This document shows, one piece after another, positions 2,548-9,162 of a stretch of DNA of 64,000 nt. The stretch spans positions 1,563-65,562 of the forward strand of contig CALWTY010000004.1 in assembly GCA_944384585.1 (NCBI GenBank). The letters run 5' to 3'. Origin of the DNA: an uncultured Clostridia bacterium. GTDB lineage: Bacteria; Bacillota; Clostridia; Oscillospirales; CAG-272. Every line of letters begins with the position of its first letter. Within the stretch, counting starts at the first letter, position 1. A program made the translations under genes and the position numbers. The notes under the pieces were generated by a model. It did not search any database. It was not told where the DNA came from and saw nothing but the letters and a program-made list of their open reading frames with translations.

Positions 2548-4068
2548 ATGATGCAAAATAGACTGTCACTTAAGAAAATCCTGTTCGGCACGACGCCTGT
2601 CGCGGCGGTGTTTCTTCTGATTATGCTTCATACCCTGGGAAGGGGAACACCGCTCGGTTCAGAGCCCTCCATGACGGAACAGACGGAAATGATCCTGTCC
2701 ATGACAGCGGTCCGCGATGTCAGTATTTTCAGCGGTGCGCCGCTGAACGCCGAGGACTTTTTCGCGGAGGGACGTCCTGACGGAGTGAAGATTTCCTTTG
2801 AGACGATTCCCCCGACCGATCGGGCAGGTCGCTACCCCGTGGTCCTGATCCTGAGCCTCGACGGACAGAGTCAGAAGCGGGAAGCGGTCCTGACGGTGAG
2901 CGAATGTCTTTCGCTGCTTCGTCTCCCCATCGGGAGCGACCGTGTGATCTCGGTGGCTGATTTTGTCGGGAATAATGCGACCGATGCGGAATTTGTAGAC
3001 TTCTATCCCAATTCCTTCTCCCGCTCCGAGCCGGGGCTTTACCGCGGCAAGATCCGCATCGACGGACAGCTCTATGAAATCGCGCTGGAGATTGCAGACC
3101 TGACGCCTCCCACCGGCGATCCCGTGACGGGCGTCACCGTCTTTCTGAATCAGACCGTCGATCCGTCGCTTCTGGTGACAAACCTGTCGGATTACGGAAA
3201 GATTACCGTCGGTTATGCGGAAGAGCCCGATTTTTCCCGCGAAGGGGAGATCCCGGTCTCGGTGCTTCTGACCGACGATAGCGGAAATCGGGCGACCGTG
3301 GATACGGTCGTGACGGTGATCCGCGATACCGAGCCGCCGGTGTTTTCCGGCATATCGGATAAGACCATTACGGTCGGTGACGGCATTTCCTATAAAAAGG
3401 GCGTGACGGTGACCGACAACAGCGGAGAGGTGCCGGATTTCACGGTGGACAGCTCCGCCGTCAATCGCAACAAGCCCGGCGTGTATTCCGTCGTGTATAC
3501 CGCGACCGATTCGTCGGGAAATACGGCCAGGGAAACGATGACCGTCACCGTCGTCAGGGTTTCGACCGAGCAGGTCAATCGGAAGCTGGAGCAGATTGCC
3601 GCAAGGATTATTTCCGACGGCATGACGCGGGACGAAAAGATCCTGGCGGTATGGAAATACACCCGCAAGGCGATCACCTACACCGGACGGTCGGACAAAA
3701 CCGATCTCTATTCCGCTGCCTATGAGGGGCTGGTGACCGGCGGGGGAGACTGCTATACCTACTATGCGCTGAATGCGCTGCTCTTTGATTTTCTCGGAAT
3801 CGAAAACGTCGAGGTCCGGCGCGTCGACGGGCAGTCAAGACACTGGTGGAGTCTTGTGCTGTTCGAGGACGGTCTGTGGTATTTTGTCGATTCCTGCCCG
3901 CTGCCCGCCAAGATGGGACAGCACGCGGGAATGACCGGCAGGATGACCAAAAGCGATCTTGCCTATCTGACCTCGCTGTCCGATCAGATCGCCGGCGAAG
4001 AGGGCGTTTATTCCGGCTACTATGAATACGACACGGCGCTGGACGCGCTCTATGCCGTCGCGCCTTGA
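2548..4068 (+). CDS. Membrane-anchored protein with Ig-like (DUF5011-type) repeats and a C-terminal transglutaminase-like domain
   Basis: N-terminal hydrophobic segment; DTEPPVF..VVYTATDSSGNTA Ig-like unit plus earlier similar units; triad motifs GDCYTYY, RHWWSLV, YFVDSC. Confidence 0.8.
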   Translation: MMQNRLSLKKILFGTTPVAAVFLLIMLHTLGRGTPLGSEPSMTEQTEMILSMTAVRDVSIFSGAPLNAEDFFAEGRPDGVKISFETIPPTDRAGRYPVVLILSLDGQSQKREAVLTVSECLSLLRLPIGSDRVISVADFVGNNATDAEFVDFYPNSFSRSEPGLYRGKIRIDGQLYEIALEIADLTPPTGDPVTGVTVFLNQTVDPSLLVTNLSDYGKITVGYAEEPDFSREGEIPVSVLLTDDSGNRATVDTVVTVIRDTEPPVFSGISDKTITVGDGISYKKGVTVTDNSGEVPDFTVDSSAVNRNKPGVYSVVYTATDSSGNTARETMTVTVVRVSTEQVNRKLEQIAARIISDGMTRDEKILAVWKYTRKAITYTGRSDKTDLYSAAYEGLVTGGGDCYTYYALNALLFDFLGIENVEVRRVDGQSRHWWSLVLFEDGLWYFVDSCPLPAKMGQHAGMTGRMTKSDLAYLTSLSDQIAGEEGVYSGYYEYDTALDALYAVAP

Positions 4069-4116: not shown

Positions 4117-5661
4117 ATGACGAATGTTCTTGAGTACCTTGAAAACGCGGTCCGCCTGACCCCCGATAAGATCTGCTATCTGGACGACGACTGCCGGATG
4201 ACCTTCCGCCGTGTGGCGGAGGAGGCGCGGGCGATCGGAAGCCTGCTTGCCCGCCGCGGCGTGTGCCGGAGGCCGGTCGCCGTCTTTATGAAAAAAGGCC
4301 CGCGCGCCGTCACCGCGTTCCTCGGCGCACTTTACGGGGGCTGCTTCTATGTTCCGCTCGACATTGAAATGCCGATGTTCCGGATCGAGCTGATTCTCGG
4401 GCTGCTCGGAGATTGCCCGATCCTCTGCGACGACGCTTCCCTCCCCGTGCTGAAAAAGCTCGGAAGGGAGGAGGACGCGGTCCTCTATGAGACCGCCGCG
4501 GCGGAGGAGACGGACGAGGAGGCGCTTGATGAGGTGAGACGGCACGGAATCGATACCGATCCCGTATATGTGCTGTTCACCTCCGGCTCGACCGGTATTC
4601 CCAAGGGAGTCATCACCTCGCATCGCGCCCTGATCGACTATGTCGATCACCTGTCGCAGATCCTGCGGGTCGATTCCGAATCGGTCTTCGGAAATCAGAC
4701 CCCGCTCTATACCGACGCCTGTCTCAAGGATCTCTATCCCACGCTGAAATGCGGCGCGACGACGGTTTTTATTCCGAAATCCCTCTTTTCCTTTCCGGTC
4801 AGGCTTCTGGAGTATCTCAATCGCCATCGGATCAATACCGTTTGCTGGGTCGCCTCGGCGCTCTCGATCGTTTCCTCGCTCGGCGCTCTTGATTCGGTGA
4901 AGCCCCGTGAGCTTCGCACCGTCGCCTTCGGCTCGGAGGTCTTTCCCGTGCGGCAGCTCCTGCTTTGGCAGAAGGCTCTTCCCGAGGCGCGGTTCATCAA
5001 TCTCTACGGCCCGACGGAATGCACTGGCTGCTGTTGCTTCTATGAGCTTGACCGCCCCTTTGAGACGGAGGAGGTCATTCCCATCGGCAAGCCCTTTCCG
5101 AACGCCGGCGTCTTTCTCCTTTCGGAGGAGGATCGCCCCGTCCCGCAGGGAGAGCTCGGCGAGATCTGCATCAAAGGAACGGGCCTTGCCTACGGCTATT
5201 ATAAGAATCCTCAGAGAACGGCGGAGGTCTTCGTTCAGAATCCTCTCAACGACGCCTACCCGGAGCGCATCTATCGGACGGGAGACCTCGGTCGCTTCAA
5301 CGAGCGGGGAGAGCTGATCTATGTGACCCGCAAGGATTTTCAGATCAAGCATATGGGGTATCGGATCGAACTGGGAGAGATCGAGGTGGTTTGCGCCGCC
5401 TGCGAGGGCGTATCGCTCTGCTGCGCGGTCTATGATCGTGAGAAAAAGCGCATCCTCCTCTACTATACCGGCGAAACGGAAAAAGGAACGCTGCTCGGTT
5501 ATCTCAAGGGAAAGCTGCCGCGGTATATGCTGCCGGCAGAGCTGATCCGGCTGCGCCAAATGCCGCTGACGCTCAATCGGAAGATCGACAGGAAGCGGCT
5601 GGAAACGGAGGGCGCGCCGGAGGAAGCGGCGGAGGAGAGCCGCCGACTGATTTCAGACTGA
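4117..5661 (+). CDS. Stand-alone amino-acid adenylation enzyme (DltA-like)
   Basis: LFTSGSTGIPKG, NLYGPTE, YRTGDLG, KHMGYRIELGEIE, NRKIDR core motifs. Confidence 0.9.
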   Translation: MTNVLEYLENAVRLTPDKICYLDDDCRMTFRRVAEEARAIGSLLARRGVCRRPVAVFMKKGPRAVTAFLGALYGGCFYVPLDIEMPMFRIELILGLLGDCPILCDDASLPVLKKLGREEDAVLYETAAAEETDEEALDEVRRHGIDTDPVYVLFTSGSTGIPKGVITSHRALIDYVDHLSQILRVDSESVFGNQTPLYTDACLKDLYPTLKCGATTVFIPKSLFSFPVRLLEYLNRHRINTVCWVASALSIVSSLGALDSVKPRELRTVAFGSEVFPVRQLLLWQKALPEARFINLYGPTECTGCCCFYELDRPFETEEVIPIGKPFPNAGVFLLSEEDRPVPQGELGEICIKGTGLAYGYYKNPQRTAEVFVQNPLNDAYPERIYRTGDLGRFNERGELIYVTRKDFQIKHMGYRIELGEIEVVCAACEGVSLCCAVYDREKKRILLYYTGETEKGTLLGYLKGKLPRYMLPAELIRLRQMPLTLNRKIDRKRLETEGAPEEAAEESRRLISD

Positions 5662-5693: not shown

Positions 5694-5921
5694 ATGGATA
5701 AGATCATTTCGATGCTCAGGGAGCTTCATCCCGATATCGACTTCGAGACGGCGGAGGCGCTGGTGGACGACGGGATTCTCGATTCGATGGATATCGTATC
5801 ACTGGTGACGGCGATTTACGACGAGTTTGACGTGCGGATCCCCGCCGACAGAATTCTGCCGGAGAATTTCAATTCCGCCGCGGCGCTCGGAAAACTGGTC
5901 AATGAACTGATCGACGAATGA
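5694..5921 (+). CDS. Acyl/aminoacyl carrier protein (DltC-like)
   Basis: 75 aa, acidic; GILDSMDIV phosphopantetheine site. Confidence 0.9.
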   Translation: MDKIISMLRELHPDIDFETAEALVDDGILDSMDIVSLVTAIYDEFDVRIPADRILPENFNSAAALGKLVNELIDE

Positions 5922-7510
5922 GCTTTACCTCCTTTTCGTTTGCGCTGTTTTTTCTCGTCCTTACGCTGCTCTACTATACCGTGGCCGGGAAAAAGCAGTG
6001 GCAGCTTTTGCTGATTGCCGGCTATTTCTTTTATGCCTGCGCCGATCCCCGCTATCTGATCTTCATTCTGGTCACGACTGCCTCCGCATATCTTGTCACG
6101 ATGCGCTTTACGGCGCTCCGACGGGAGCTTGGACGATGGTTTGACGAGCATCCCGAACTGACCCGCGAGGAGAGAAAGAGATACAAGGAAAAAACGGCGT
6201 CCCGCTGTCGGAAATGGCTGCTGCTTGCCGTTTTGCTGAACTTCGGGATTCTGTTCACCTTCAAATACCTGAACTTTTTCCTTGTCAATCTCGATTCGCT
6301 GTTCGGCCTTTTCGGAGGGGGACTGCCGGTCACATCGGTCAGGCTGCTGCTTCCGCTGGGACTTTCGTTTTATATTTTTCAAACGATCGGCTATGTGGCG
6401 GATATTTATTTCGGAAAATACGAAGCCGAACGGAATCCCTTTCGGCTGGCTTTGTTTGTCTCCTTCTTTCCCCAGCTTCTGCAAGGGCCGATCGGGCGCT
6501 ATAATCTGATGGCGCCCACCCTCTTTGCTTCTCATGCCTATGATTCCAAAGCCGTGCGCTTCGGACTTCAGCGGATGCTTTGGGGGTATTTCAAGAAAAT
6601 CGTGATCGCTGACCGACTGATCAAGCCGGTCTCGACGATCGGCGGCGCTCCCGAGGAATACGGCGGCGTCTTTGTGCTGCTTGGGATGCTGCTCTATGCG
6701 GCGCAGCTCTACTGCGACTTTACCGGAGGGATCGATATCACCATCGGCTCAGCGGAGGTGCTGGGCGTCCGGTTGAGCGAGAACTTCAATCGCCCCTTCT
6801 TCTCCAAGAGCGTTGCGGAGTATTGGCGTCGCTGGCATATTACCCTCGGCACCTGGTTCAAGGATTATACCTTCTATCCCCTGTCGACGAGCAAAGCGAT
6901 GATGAAGCTTTCGAAATGGACCAAGGGCAGATTCGGCCCTGCCGTCGCGCGGCGCGTCCCCGTCTATCTCTCCACCGTGATCCTGTGGCTTGCGACCGGC
7001 GCGTGGCACGGCGCGAAATGGAACTTTATCGTCTGGGGACTCGGAAACTGTCTTGTCATCCTGATTTCACAGGAGCTGACGCCCCTATACCGCCGCTTTT
7101 ACGAGCGCTTTCCGAAGCTGCATCGCTCCCGCTTCTGGGACGGAGTGCAGGTGCTTCGCACCAACGGCATCATGTGCCTGCTTCGCACCCTTGACTGCTA
7201 CGCTTCCCCCGGGGCGGCGTTCTTTGCGATCGGAACGATCTTTACCCGCATGAACGGCGGCGCGCTGACGACGGATGCGCTGCTTGAGCTTGGACTGAAG
7301 CCGGCGGATATTGCGGTGACGGCGGTCGGGGTGCTGATCGTCTTTGCCGTCAGCATGGCGGGACGGAGCGGATCGGTCAGAGAAAAGCTCGCCCGGCTTC
7401 CCGCAGGCGTCCGGGTCCTGCTTTTCGGCGCGCTGTTCTTCTCGATTCTGGTGTTCGGCGCTTACGGCATCGGATACGACGCGGGACAGTTTATCTATAC
7501 GCAGTTTTAA
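5918..7510 (+). CDS. MBOAT family O-acyltransferase (DltB/AlgI-like) with C-terminal DltX-like motif
   Basis: LPLGLSFYIFQ, SFFPQLLQGPI, EYWRRWHITLGTWF, TGAWHG (catalytic His); ends in FIYTQF. Confidence 0.92.
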   Translation: MSFTSFSFALFFLVLTLLYYTVAGKKQWQLLLIAGYFFYACADPRYLIFILVTTASAYLVTMRFTALRRELGRWFDEHPELTREERKRYKEKTASRCRKWLLLAVLLNFGILFTFKYLNFFLVNLDSLFGLFGGGLPVTSVRLLLPLGLSFYIFQTIGYVADIYFGKYEAERNPFRLALFVSFFPQLLQGPIGRYNLMAPTLFASHAYDSKAVRFGLQRMLWGYFKKIVIADRLIKPVSTIGGAPEEYGGVFVLLGMLLYAAQLYCDFTGGIDITIGSAEVLGVRLSENFNRPFFSKSVAEYWRRWHITLGTWFKDYTFYPLSTSKAMMKLSKWTKGRFGPAVARRVPVYLSTVILWLATGAWHGAKWNFIVWGLGNCLVILISQELTPLYRRFYERFPKLHRSRFWDGVQVLRTNGIMCLLRTLDCYASPGAAFFAIGTIFTRMNGGALTTDALLELGLKPADIAVTAVGVLIVFAVSMAGRSGSVREKLARLPAGVRVLLFGALFFSILVFGAYGIGYDAGQFIYTQF

Positions 7511-7522
7511 GGCGGTGGCGAA

Positions 7523-8590
7523 ATGAAAAAACGGCTTGCGGCTGTTGCGGTCTGCCTGTCGGCGGTGCTGATCTTCTTCGCATTGCAGGCGCTGCTCACG
7601 CCGAAATACATCACCGAGGCGCAGGAGGGCAATCTCCTTGCGGAATATTACGATTCCGGGAAAAATCACGACGTGATCTTTATCGGGGATTGCGAGGTCT
7701 ATGAAAACATCGACCCGGTTGTGCTGTGGAGAGAATACGGAATTTCCTCCTATGTCAGAGGCTCGCCCCAGCAGCTGATCTGGATGTCCTATTATCTCAT
7801 GGAGGAGACCCTGCGGTACGAGAAGCCCGATGTCTTCGTCTTCAACGTGCTGGCAATGAAATACGGGGAGCCTCAGAGCGAGGCCTATAACCGGCTGGCG
7901 CATGACGGAATGAGACTGTCAGGGAGCAAGCTGCGCTCCGTCCGGGCATCGATGACCGAGGAGGAGAGCTTCCTCTCCTATCTTTTTCCGCTCCTACGCT
8001 ATCATTCCCGCTGGTCGGAGCTGGATAAGAACGATCTGAAATATTGGTTCAAACCCGCCCCTCAGATTTCCTGTGCCGGCTATCTGATGCGGGTGGATAC
8101 CAAAGGGATCGATTTCATCCCGCCGGGACAGGAGCTGCCCGACTATCGGTTTTCCGGGCTCTGCTATGAATATCTCGATAAAATGACGGCGCTCTGCCGC
8201 GAAAACGGGATCGAGCTTGTGCTGATCAAGGCGCCCTCCCTCAGCCCCTATTGGTATGATCAGTGGGATGAGCAGATCGAGGAATATGCCGAGAAAAACG
8301 ACCTTTTGTATTACAACTTCCTTGAAATGTCGGAGCAGACCGGCATTGATTATATGACCGATACCTACGACGCGGGCCTTCATCTGAATCTCGCGGGGGC
8401 GGAGAAGCTCACCCGCCTGATGGGGGAGCTTTTGATGCGGGAATACGATCTGACCGATCACCGCGGCGACGCGGCGTATCGGGAGGAATGGGATCGGATC
8501 GCGGCGTTCCACGACAGGGTCAAGGCGCATCAGGAGAAAGAGCTTGCCGAGAATGGCTACTTGTCGGGCTTTACCTATTTTGAAGATTGA
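7523..8590 (+). CDS. SGNH-like / DltD-like extracytoplasmic acyltransferase
   Basis: N-terminal signal anchor; block I VIFIGDCEVY; block V YDAGLHLNLAGA. Confidence 0.75.
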   Translation: MKKRLAAVAVCLSAVLIFFALQALLTPKYITEAQEGNLLAEYYDSGKNHDVIFIGDCEVYENIDPVVLWREYGISSYVRGSPQQLIWMSYYLMEETLRYEKPDVFVFNVLAMKYGEPQSEAYNRLAHDGMRLSGSKLRSVRASMTEEESFLSYLFPLLRYHSRWSELDKNDLKYWFKPAPQISCAGYLMRVDTKGIDFIPPGQELPDYRFSGLCYEYLDKMTALCRENGIELVLIKAPSLSPYWYDQWDEQIEEYAEKNDLLYYNFLEMSEQTGIDYMTDTYDAGLHLNLAGAEKLTRLMGELLMREYDLTDHRGDAAYREEWDRIAAFHDRVKAHQEKELAENGYLSGFTYFED

Positions 8591-8604
8591 GAAAGGATGG
8601 AATC

Positions 8605-9162
8605 ATGAAAAAACGGATTTGTGTATGGCTGTCTGCGCTTTTGCTGACAGCGTTGCTTGCCGGCTGCGGAGAGCCCTCCGGCGAGAGAGAGGAGAGCGGG
8701 TCTGCGGGGGATCAGACGACGGCATCCGTCACGGCTTCTGCCCCGGCGTCGGAAAAGAAGGGCTATCTCTTCCGGTTTGACGGCAAGGATGTATACTGCA
8801 ATCAGGACGGCGAGGAGGCGCTCTCGATTCTCGGAGAATTCGAACATAAGCTGGAATCTCCCTCCTGTGCCTTTGACGGCGTGGATACCACCTATTATTA
8901 CGCTTCGGTGCAGCTGATCACCTACACCGACGGATCGTCTCCTTCGAAGGTGCTGTCGATCTATCTGCAGGATGATACCGTCGAAACGGCGGAAGGAATC
9001 TCAGTGGGAGACAGCAAGGAGGACGTGGAGGCCGCCTACGGCGAGCCGGCAGAGCGGGGGGAGAACAGTCTGATTTTCGAAAAGGACGGAATGAGGCTGA
9101 CCTTTGTCTTCAACGAGGACGGCGTTTCGTCGGTTCTCTATTCTCTGATCACGGAGGAATAA
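8605..9162 (+). CDS. Lipoprotein of unknown function
   Basis: ATG 8605 after GAAAGGA; MKKR + hydrophobic stretch + lipobox LAGC (Cys21); Ser/Thr/Ala linker; GISVGDSKEDVEAAYGEP domain. Confidence 0.8.
   Translation: MKKRICVWLSALLLTALLAGCGEPSGEREESGSAGDQTTASVTASAPASEKKGYLFRFDGKDVYCNQDGEEALSILGEFEHKLESPSCAFDGVDTTYYYASVQLITYTDGSSPSKVLSIYLQDDTVETAEGISVGDSKEDVEAAYGEPAERGENSLIFEKDGMRLTFVFNEDGVSSVLYSLITEE

Follow-up and report, generated by a model that had tools for sequence, protein, structure and literature searches.

The stretch of DNA analysed here (the window) comprises 64,000 nucleotides of contig CALWTY010000004.1 from an uncultured Clostridia bacterium. The gene under study is the fifth of six tightly packed genes in the window, which encode, in this order, an Ig-like/transglutaminase-core protein, an adenylation enzyme, a carrier protein, an MBOAT protein, an SGNH protein with cysteine at the nucleophile position, and a lipoprotein (Table 1).

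Table 1. Genes of the operon in the window and features of the SGNH protein
Feature	Position	Strand	Remarks
Ig-like and transglutaminase-core protein	2548..4068	+	Membrane-anchored; identified with Pfam; Cys402-His432-Asp448 triad intact
Amino-acid adenylation enzyme	4117..5661	+	DltA-like; pocket code D-A-K-C-A-G-L-G-C-K
Carrier protein, 75 aa	5694..5921	+	Phosphopantetheine site Ser31 (5784-5786); PP-binding and DltC-like matches
MBOAT protein (DltB/PatA-like)	5918..7510	+	Conserved His307 (WHITL); C-terminal F-I-Y-T-Q-F at 7490-7507, with Tyr at 7496-7498
Cys-SGNH protein	7523..8590	+	355 aa; DltD-like SGNH fold; PF27429/LB_356-type
N-terminal membrane anchor	7526..7597	+	Residues 2-25, preceded by KKR; single helix in the AF2 model; matches the DltD anchor helix
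Block I, G55-D56-C57-E58	7685..7696	+	Cys at the nucleophile position
Block V, D283-A-G-L-H287-L-N289	8369..8389	+	Acid, base and conserved Asn
Lipoprotein	8587..9162	+	Lipobox Cys27; likely true start M7 (8605); Cys94 (8866-8868) in S-C-A-F-x-G

The adenylation enzyme matched TIGR01733 with 330.5 bits (cut-off 317.4), and the DltA models remained below their cut-off. The residues of its pocket code, including K239, were placed by what we take to be the correspondence with PheA positions; throughout the clade of Cys-type proteins described below, the code reads DAKCAGLG[MC]K, and other codes are found in the Ser clades. Ser31 of the carrier protein is invariant (68/68), and so is the Cys402-His432-Asp448 triad of the transglutaminase-core protein (61/61). 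The MBOAT protein was recognised by the Pfam MBOAT model (E 6.7e-18) and by the DltB model at E 1e-38, which lies below the cut-off of that model. All 83 full-length MBOATs of related operons end in F/L-[IV]-Y-x-x-F, and the window protein ends in FIYTQF. Experiments on PatA have shown that a C-terminal F-x-Y-x-x-F motif acts as an acyl-Tyr shuttle, and DltX is described as having one too (PMC12148441). The adjacent MBOAT on which an MBOAT-SGNH acyl relay depends is present at this locus, together with its conserved His and terminal acyl-Tyr motif.

The SGNH peptide contains NHDVIFIGDCEVYENIDP and TDTYDAGLHLNLAGAEK, with the motifs VIFIGDCEVY (block I) and TDTYDAGLHLN (block V). The codons of block I are GGG for G55 (7685-7687), GAT for D56 (7688-7690), TGC for C57 (7691-7693) and GAG for E58 (7694-7696), and those of the two block V residues are GAC for D283 (8369-8371) and CAT for H287 (8381-8383). 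When we modelled the protein with AF2 using 120 homologues (pLDDT 93.2, pTM 0.92), an N-terminal helix of residues 2-25 was followed by an α/β domain, in which the strand 51-55 runs into the helix 57-60; in the model, this arrangement is that of block I in SGNH enzymes. The prediction places the catalytic domain on the extracellular side. Foldseek searches against the PDB returned GDSL/SGNH structures at probability 1.00 (best E 3.4e-5), including the GDSL acylhydrolases 4iyj, 4rsh and 3p94 (E about 1e-4 to 1e-5), DltD of two species (6pfx and 3bma, with 374-386 aligned columns), TesA and PatB. By model and structural matches alike, the protein has the three-layer α/β/α SGNH fold. The serine expected at the nucleophile site of block I (Gly-Asp/Ser-Ser) is absent, and Cys57 stands there in a motif that is correctly placed after the strand.

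Scans of the Pfam and NCBIfam collections gave nothing above cut-off (GDSL was sub-threshold, E 0.003), Pfam DltD (PF04914) gave no match at E <= 0.1, and a PDB sequence search returned nothing with the single protein and marginal GDSL matches only with the family profile. Precomputed PF27429 assignments exist for many 58-69% identical homologues and for Ser-type relatives, and not for the window protein itself. With hhalign, we then aligned a family profile (119 sequences) to one made from ten DltD proteins of Bacillota genomes. The two profiles aligned with a probability of 95.5% (E 1.4e-8); the 296 aligned columns begin at the membrane anchor and extend as far as the last helix, and G55-D56-C57-E58 fell on the invariant G69-S70-S71-E72 of DltD and H287 on the invariant H373. 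The triad of L. plantarum DltD is Ser74, Asp373 and His376 in the crystal-structure paper (PMC13653941). At the Q-W motif, at the Asp and at the His, residue numbers in our DltD profile run 3 behind those of L. plantarum, which makes S71 the counterpart of the catalytic Ser74. By this alignment, C57 occupies the position of the DltD nucleophile and H287 that of the catalytic His, and topology and alignments are what supports the putative proximity of Cys57 and His287. The preliminary description had called the protein SGNH/DltD-like and had located VIFIGDCEVY, its TGC codon at 7691-7693 and D-x-x-x-H at 8369-8383; the motifs and coordinates proved exact when the open reading frame was checked, and the identity is borne out by the Foldseek and hhalign results.

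Other catalytic elements were compared in the same way. The oxyanion candidates are G80, invariant in the Cys clade, and Q84, conserved family-wide, both aligned with the G-x-x-Q region of DltD, and N108, a block III candidate, is conserved among close homologues only. One feature speaks against a catalytic cysteine: Asp stands at -4 from His in the window protein (D-x-x-x-H), one residue farther than in canonical SGNH enzymes and DltD, and the canonical D-x-x-H spacing is also present in many Ser-type relatives.

The best structural matches, GDSL acylhydrolases and the TesA thioesterase, would also suit a hydrolase, that is, a thiol esterase or thioesterase that acts on the modification or on the acyl-Tyr intermediate by trimming or proofreading, and a dedicated esterase, DltE, can be part of Dlt systems (PMC13653941). 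However, the gene sits in the DltD slot right after the MBOAT gene, and the protein has a DltD-type membrane anchor and full-length homology to DltD. Moreover, our searches of the host genome (95% complete) found neither a canonical DltD (PF04914) nor a second member of the window protein's family, and the operon holds no other SGNH partner. We consider a hydrolase very improbable.

We next turn to the conservation of the cysteine. G-D-C is present in all 120 closest homologues (58-77% identical). An unbiased HMMER search against 1.84 billion cluster representatives yielded 6,685 relatives; we counted the C57 column in the best 150, and in the 143 that cover it the residue is in every case either Ser (93) or Cys (50). 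Across the family, G55, H287, N289 and G292 are invariant or nearly so. Because the column is restricted to Ser and Cys and these residues are conserved, the block I and block V match is not a chance motif. A tree of 119 full-length representatives, calculated with the motif columns taken out, places the G-D-C-E proteins in a single clade (SH-aLRT 99) whose sister is a five-member Ser clade with G-S-S-T; it requires 4 Ser/Cys changes, compared with 23.7 when the labels were shuffled. A motif scan of one genome per species gave at least 597 matches. At least 590 of them proved to be relatives, and the hits are spread over Oscillospiraceae, Lachnospiraceae, Clostridiaceae, Acetivibrionales, Caldicoprobacterales, Erysipelotrichaceae and others. 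The cysteine is encoded by both TGC (40 times) and TGT (30 times). An alignment of homologues had been proposed in the preliminary description as the check on a singleton substitution, and by these counts the cysteine is no singleton and is clade-conserved.

The GDCE clade retains G55, H287, D283 and N289 at 90-100%, and G292 and K295 are likewise conserved; H287 is kept in 22/22 Cys-clade proteins and 87/87 Ser relatives, and D283 in more than 90%. The residues that switch along with the cysteine are G36, Y42, H49, D56, E58, R79, E100, Y122 and N265, and the position of E100 is Gln in 84 of 87 Ser relatives. The fixed changes at H49, E58 and E100 may reflect a re-tuning of the active site for a thiolate. 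We also considered a disulfide role for C57 and rejected it, as the protein contains no clade-specific partner cysteine and C225 is family-wide.

Two further small Cys groups of independent origin occur in the family tree. P0166, P0204, P0213 and P0265 belong to such independent small groups with Cys at the nucleophile position (G-S-C-N), and two of the three members of the G-S-C-N group (P0166 and P0213) carry Arg in place of the catalytic His; judged by sequence, these two may be inactive or work differently. Since they have lost the catalytic His, cysteine at the nucleophile site alone does not guarantee catalysis. The only Ser within the Cys clade belongs to P0168, a divergent fusion of SGNH, Ig and transglutaminase parts, and this exception counts against Cys57 as the nucleophile. 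The possibility that it represents a revertant clade was rejected, because it is a single divergent protein whose nearest relatives (<=39% identity) are all GDCE.

To compare gene neighbourhoods, we used 80 related loci found with a close alignment. One of the search patterns includes GDCEVY, and these loci were therefore not used for counting the conservation of the cysteine. In nearly all of the 80 loci with enough flanking sequence, a colinear operon of six or seven genes was observed in the order transglutaminase-like protein, (Asp/Glu racemase), adenylation enzyme, carrier, MBOAT, Cys-SGNH protein and lipoprotein. In 42 of 59 complete operons, a gene for an Asp/Glu-family racemase lies ahead of the adenylation gene. 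The operon of the window is without a racemase gene, but a 44%-identical Asp/Glu-family racemase is encoded at another site of the same genome (contig C14, 23117-23791; L115). In some Oscillospiraceae MAGs (L001-L004) the operon is split, with the genes for the transglutaminase-like protein, the Cys-SGNH protein and the lipoprotein together and no MBOAT gene upstream. We rejected MBOAT-independent Cys-SGNH proteins as an explanation for L001, L003 and L004, since an orthologous, full-length MBOAT (~50% identity) lies on another contig (L106-L108); for L002, the search gave only a weaker, partial MBOAT match (39%, residues 135-530).

The lipoprotein gene follows the Cys-SGNH gene in 77 of the 80 loci. 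Its Cys94 is invariant in 77/77 and is the sole invariant cysteine outside the lipobox, and G137 is invariant as well (77/77). The model of the lipoprotein (pLDDT 85) gave weak DUF4309/BLIP-like matches only in a fold search, and no known enzyme was matched. We saw the S-C-A-F-x-G lipoprotein only alongside Cys-type SGNH proteins, to which it is sometimes fused; it could take part in a thiol relay, protect Cys57 or be the acceptor. Fusions of the SGNH protein with a lipoprotein domain were found in P0121, P0123, P0126, P0129 and P0132 (all Cys-type), and fusions of SGNH, Ig and transglutaminase parts in P0124 and P0342 (Cys) and P0168 (Ser), with locus L114 (918-2750) as an example. In sequence terms, the fusions tie together the SGNH, Ig-transglutaminase and lipoprotein parts. 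Because such natural single-chain fusions are Rosetta-stone evidence, we suggest that the SGNH and transglutaminase-core domains act jointly outside the cell.

With two more invariant extracellular cysteines in the same operon, and with a small independent Cys group that lacks the catalytic His, one may ask whether Cys57 is redox-active or regulatory, or whether the SGNH protein is a non-catalytic scaffold and another component performs the transfer, for example the transglutaminase-like enzyme or Cys94 of the lipoprotein taking the acyl group directly from the MBOAT Tyr. We regard this as improbable: the GDCE clade keeps the rest of the catalytic set at 90-100%, the C57 column holds nucleophilic Ser or Cys exclusively among the best 150 of the 6,685 relatives, and a clade-specific disulfide partner is lacking.

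Detailed comparison with the Ser-type relatives revealed which features accompany the cysteine. Ser-type members of PF27429 ('LB_356') are 36-38% identical to the window protein, are of equal length, have the anchor, and have MBOAT, carrier and adenylation neighbours, for example in the sister clade; they likewise adjoin an MBOAT with the same terminal motif. They differ in the Ser nucleophile, in a radical-SAM aminomutase or a PLP fold-III enzyme instead of the racemase, and in the adenylation code. The operon of the G-S-S-T sister clade encodes an adenylation enzyme (code DAIRIGIGVK), a carrier, an MBOAT, the Ser-type SGNH protein and a radical-SAM lysine-aminomutase-like enzyme, while other Ser clades carry a PLP fold-III (Orn/DAP decarboxylase-like) gene and the code D[IV]KI[ML]SLCNK, and still others are without any adenylation or carrier genes. 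The transglutaminase-like protein and the lipoprotein were absent at 12 of 12 Ser-type examples examined. As the Ser-type operons differ in these ways, the cysteine goes with one pathway, the one that has the racemase, an adenylation pocket with K239 and two additional Cys proteins, and it does not simply track carrier-protein dependence. This association reflects one evolutionary event and is not a statistical correlation, since the Cys-type proteins concerned form a single clade. The wider PF27429 family, as seen at L104 (5623-11294), L105 (5528-11269), L085 (3496-9016) and L088 (8013-13486), is a set of Dlt-like operons in which both the amino-acid supply enzyme and the adenylation pocket code differ from one type of operon to the next; this suggests several different undescribed envelope aminoacylations.

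MBOAT-SGNH relays such as Dlt, Pat, Alg and Wss are described as proceeding through an acyl-Tyr and then an acyl-Ser intermediate. DltD of teichoic-acid D-alanylation (DltX-A-B-C-D) shares with the window protein the anchor and extracellular SGNH domain, full-length profile homology, MBOAT, carrier and adenylation neighbours, and an aligned G-x-Nuc-E block I and catalytic His. In contrast, the window protein has Cys for Ser, no Pfam DltD match and the D-x-x-x-H spacing. At the operon level, the window is without DltX, the shuttle motif being fused to the MBOAT, and the adenylation pocket is not DltA-like; Cys-type operons add the transglutaminase-like protein and the Cys-lipoprotein, and their racemase is of the Asp/Glu family and not an alanine racemase. 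TviD, the O-acetyltransferase of the Vi antigen, is a cytoplasmic enzyme that uses acetyl-CoA, and to our knowledge it is the only characterised Cys-bearing SGNH transferase. It has an SGNH-type fold with G-S-C in block I, its Cys and block V His are essential, and it carries a TPR domain at its C-terminus and acts together with the glycosyltransferase TviE (PMC8760489). By this description, TviD is a precedent for a functional block I cysteine, and it performs O-acetylation. In PatA/PatB, AlgI/AlgJ/AlgX and WssH/WssI, an MBOAT with a C-terminal F-x-Y-x-x-F likewise passes the acyl group to a separate SGNH protein (PMC12148441); PatA/PatB-type pairs use acetyl-CoA and a Ser nucleophile, whereas the window system has a carrier-protein donor and Cys. 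Two reviews of SGNH enzymes make no mention of Cys nucleophiles, and in our literature searches we found no paper on this operon, on a cysteine in SGNH proteins that partner an MBOAT, or on aspartate racemase together with MBOAT. The preliminary description had spoken of new chemistry for MBOAT-SGNH pathways, which for the thioester step is a fair statement, as the searchable literature yielded no description of it.

Based on these observations, we suggest that the SGNH protein of the window probably acts as the final enzyme in a Dlt-like relay that aminoacylates the envelope, with Cys57 instead of Ser as the catalytic nucleophile. The adenylation enzyme would load an amino acid other than D-Ala, probably an acidic D-amino acid, via an acyl-adenylate onto the phosphopantetheine of carrier Ser31 as a thioester, and the MBOAT would bring the aminoacyl group to the other side of the membrane, where the Tyr in the MBOAT's own C-terminal F-I-Y-T-Q-F would receive it. 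Cys57 and His287, possibly with Asp283, of the anchored SGNH domain would then accept the group as a thioester and hand it to an acceptor in the envelope, and the transglutaminase-like Cys enzyme and the Cys94 lipoprotein would be obligate extracellular partners of the Cys variant. The steps up to the acyl-Tyr are proposed by homology with Dlt and Pat. The thioester on Cys57 would follow from where the cysteine lies, from the fact that it alternates with Ser only and from the otherwise retained catalytic set, and we consider it well supported on these grounds. The fold, the homology to DltD, the equivalent positions of Cys and His, the conservation of the cysteine in its clade and of the operon, and the acyl-Tyr motif are observations; every chemical step is inferred, as are the amino acid and the acceptor involved.

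Here, we need to consider what a thioester would serve. Cys acyl-enzymes that work outside the cytoplasm, among them sortases, L,D-transpeptidases and Lnt, pass acyl groups to amines, and D-Asp is an amide-linked peptidoglycan bridge in some Bacillota. Together with the transglutaminase-fold Cys-His-Asp enzyme of the operon, a fold associated with amide chemistry, and with the Asp/Glu-family racemase of most full operons (42/59), this background would fit an amide-forming step, in line with the N-acylation raised in the preliminary description, in which an amine (for instance a free Lys or DAP side chain or a deacetylated sugar in peptidoglycan, or a protein or lipid amine) and not a hydroxyl is aminoacylated. 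On the contrary, the Cys-bearing SGNH enzyme TviD O-acetylates (PMC8760489), and a thioester would be equally competent for O-acyl transfer. Since transfer from a thioester is downhill to hydroxyl and amine alike, N-acylation is possible and is indicated by none of our results; we hold it as a tentative option, on the unlikely side.

The ready oxidation of a free thiol in an extracellular domain also speaks against a catalytic Cys57, although the 80 locus records name as hosts Clostridia and other Bacillota sampled from the gut, the rumen and digesters. A more elaborate and rather doubtful scheme would be an extracellular thiol relay unique to anaerobic Clostridia, in which an acidic D-amino acid passes from the acyl-Tyr to a Cys57 thioester and, possibly via Cys94 of the lipoprotein, to an amide on an envelope amine, for example on a peptidoglycan stem-peptide side chain, and the transglutaminase-like enzyme cross-links or edits the product. 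If this scheme were true, it would amount to an ATP-independent, extracellular construction of peptide branches on the wall.

Returning to the aminoacylation relay with a catalytic Cys57, the comparisons above appear to mark the Cys clade as an undescribed, thiol-based version of Dlt-type surface decoration with new partners. This clade, found in at least about 590 species genomes of Clostridia from the gut, the rumen and digesters, has exchanged the serine for cysteine and recruited two further Cys proteins. If Cys57 is catalytic, the last step would proceed via a thioester, which would make the transfer effectively irreversible and open up amine acceptors. The natural Ser and Cys sister clades provide a built-in comparison for the benefit of the nucleophile swap, and the operon, which is widespread in gut microbiota and has no described product, is a target for finding a new envelope modification.
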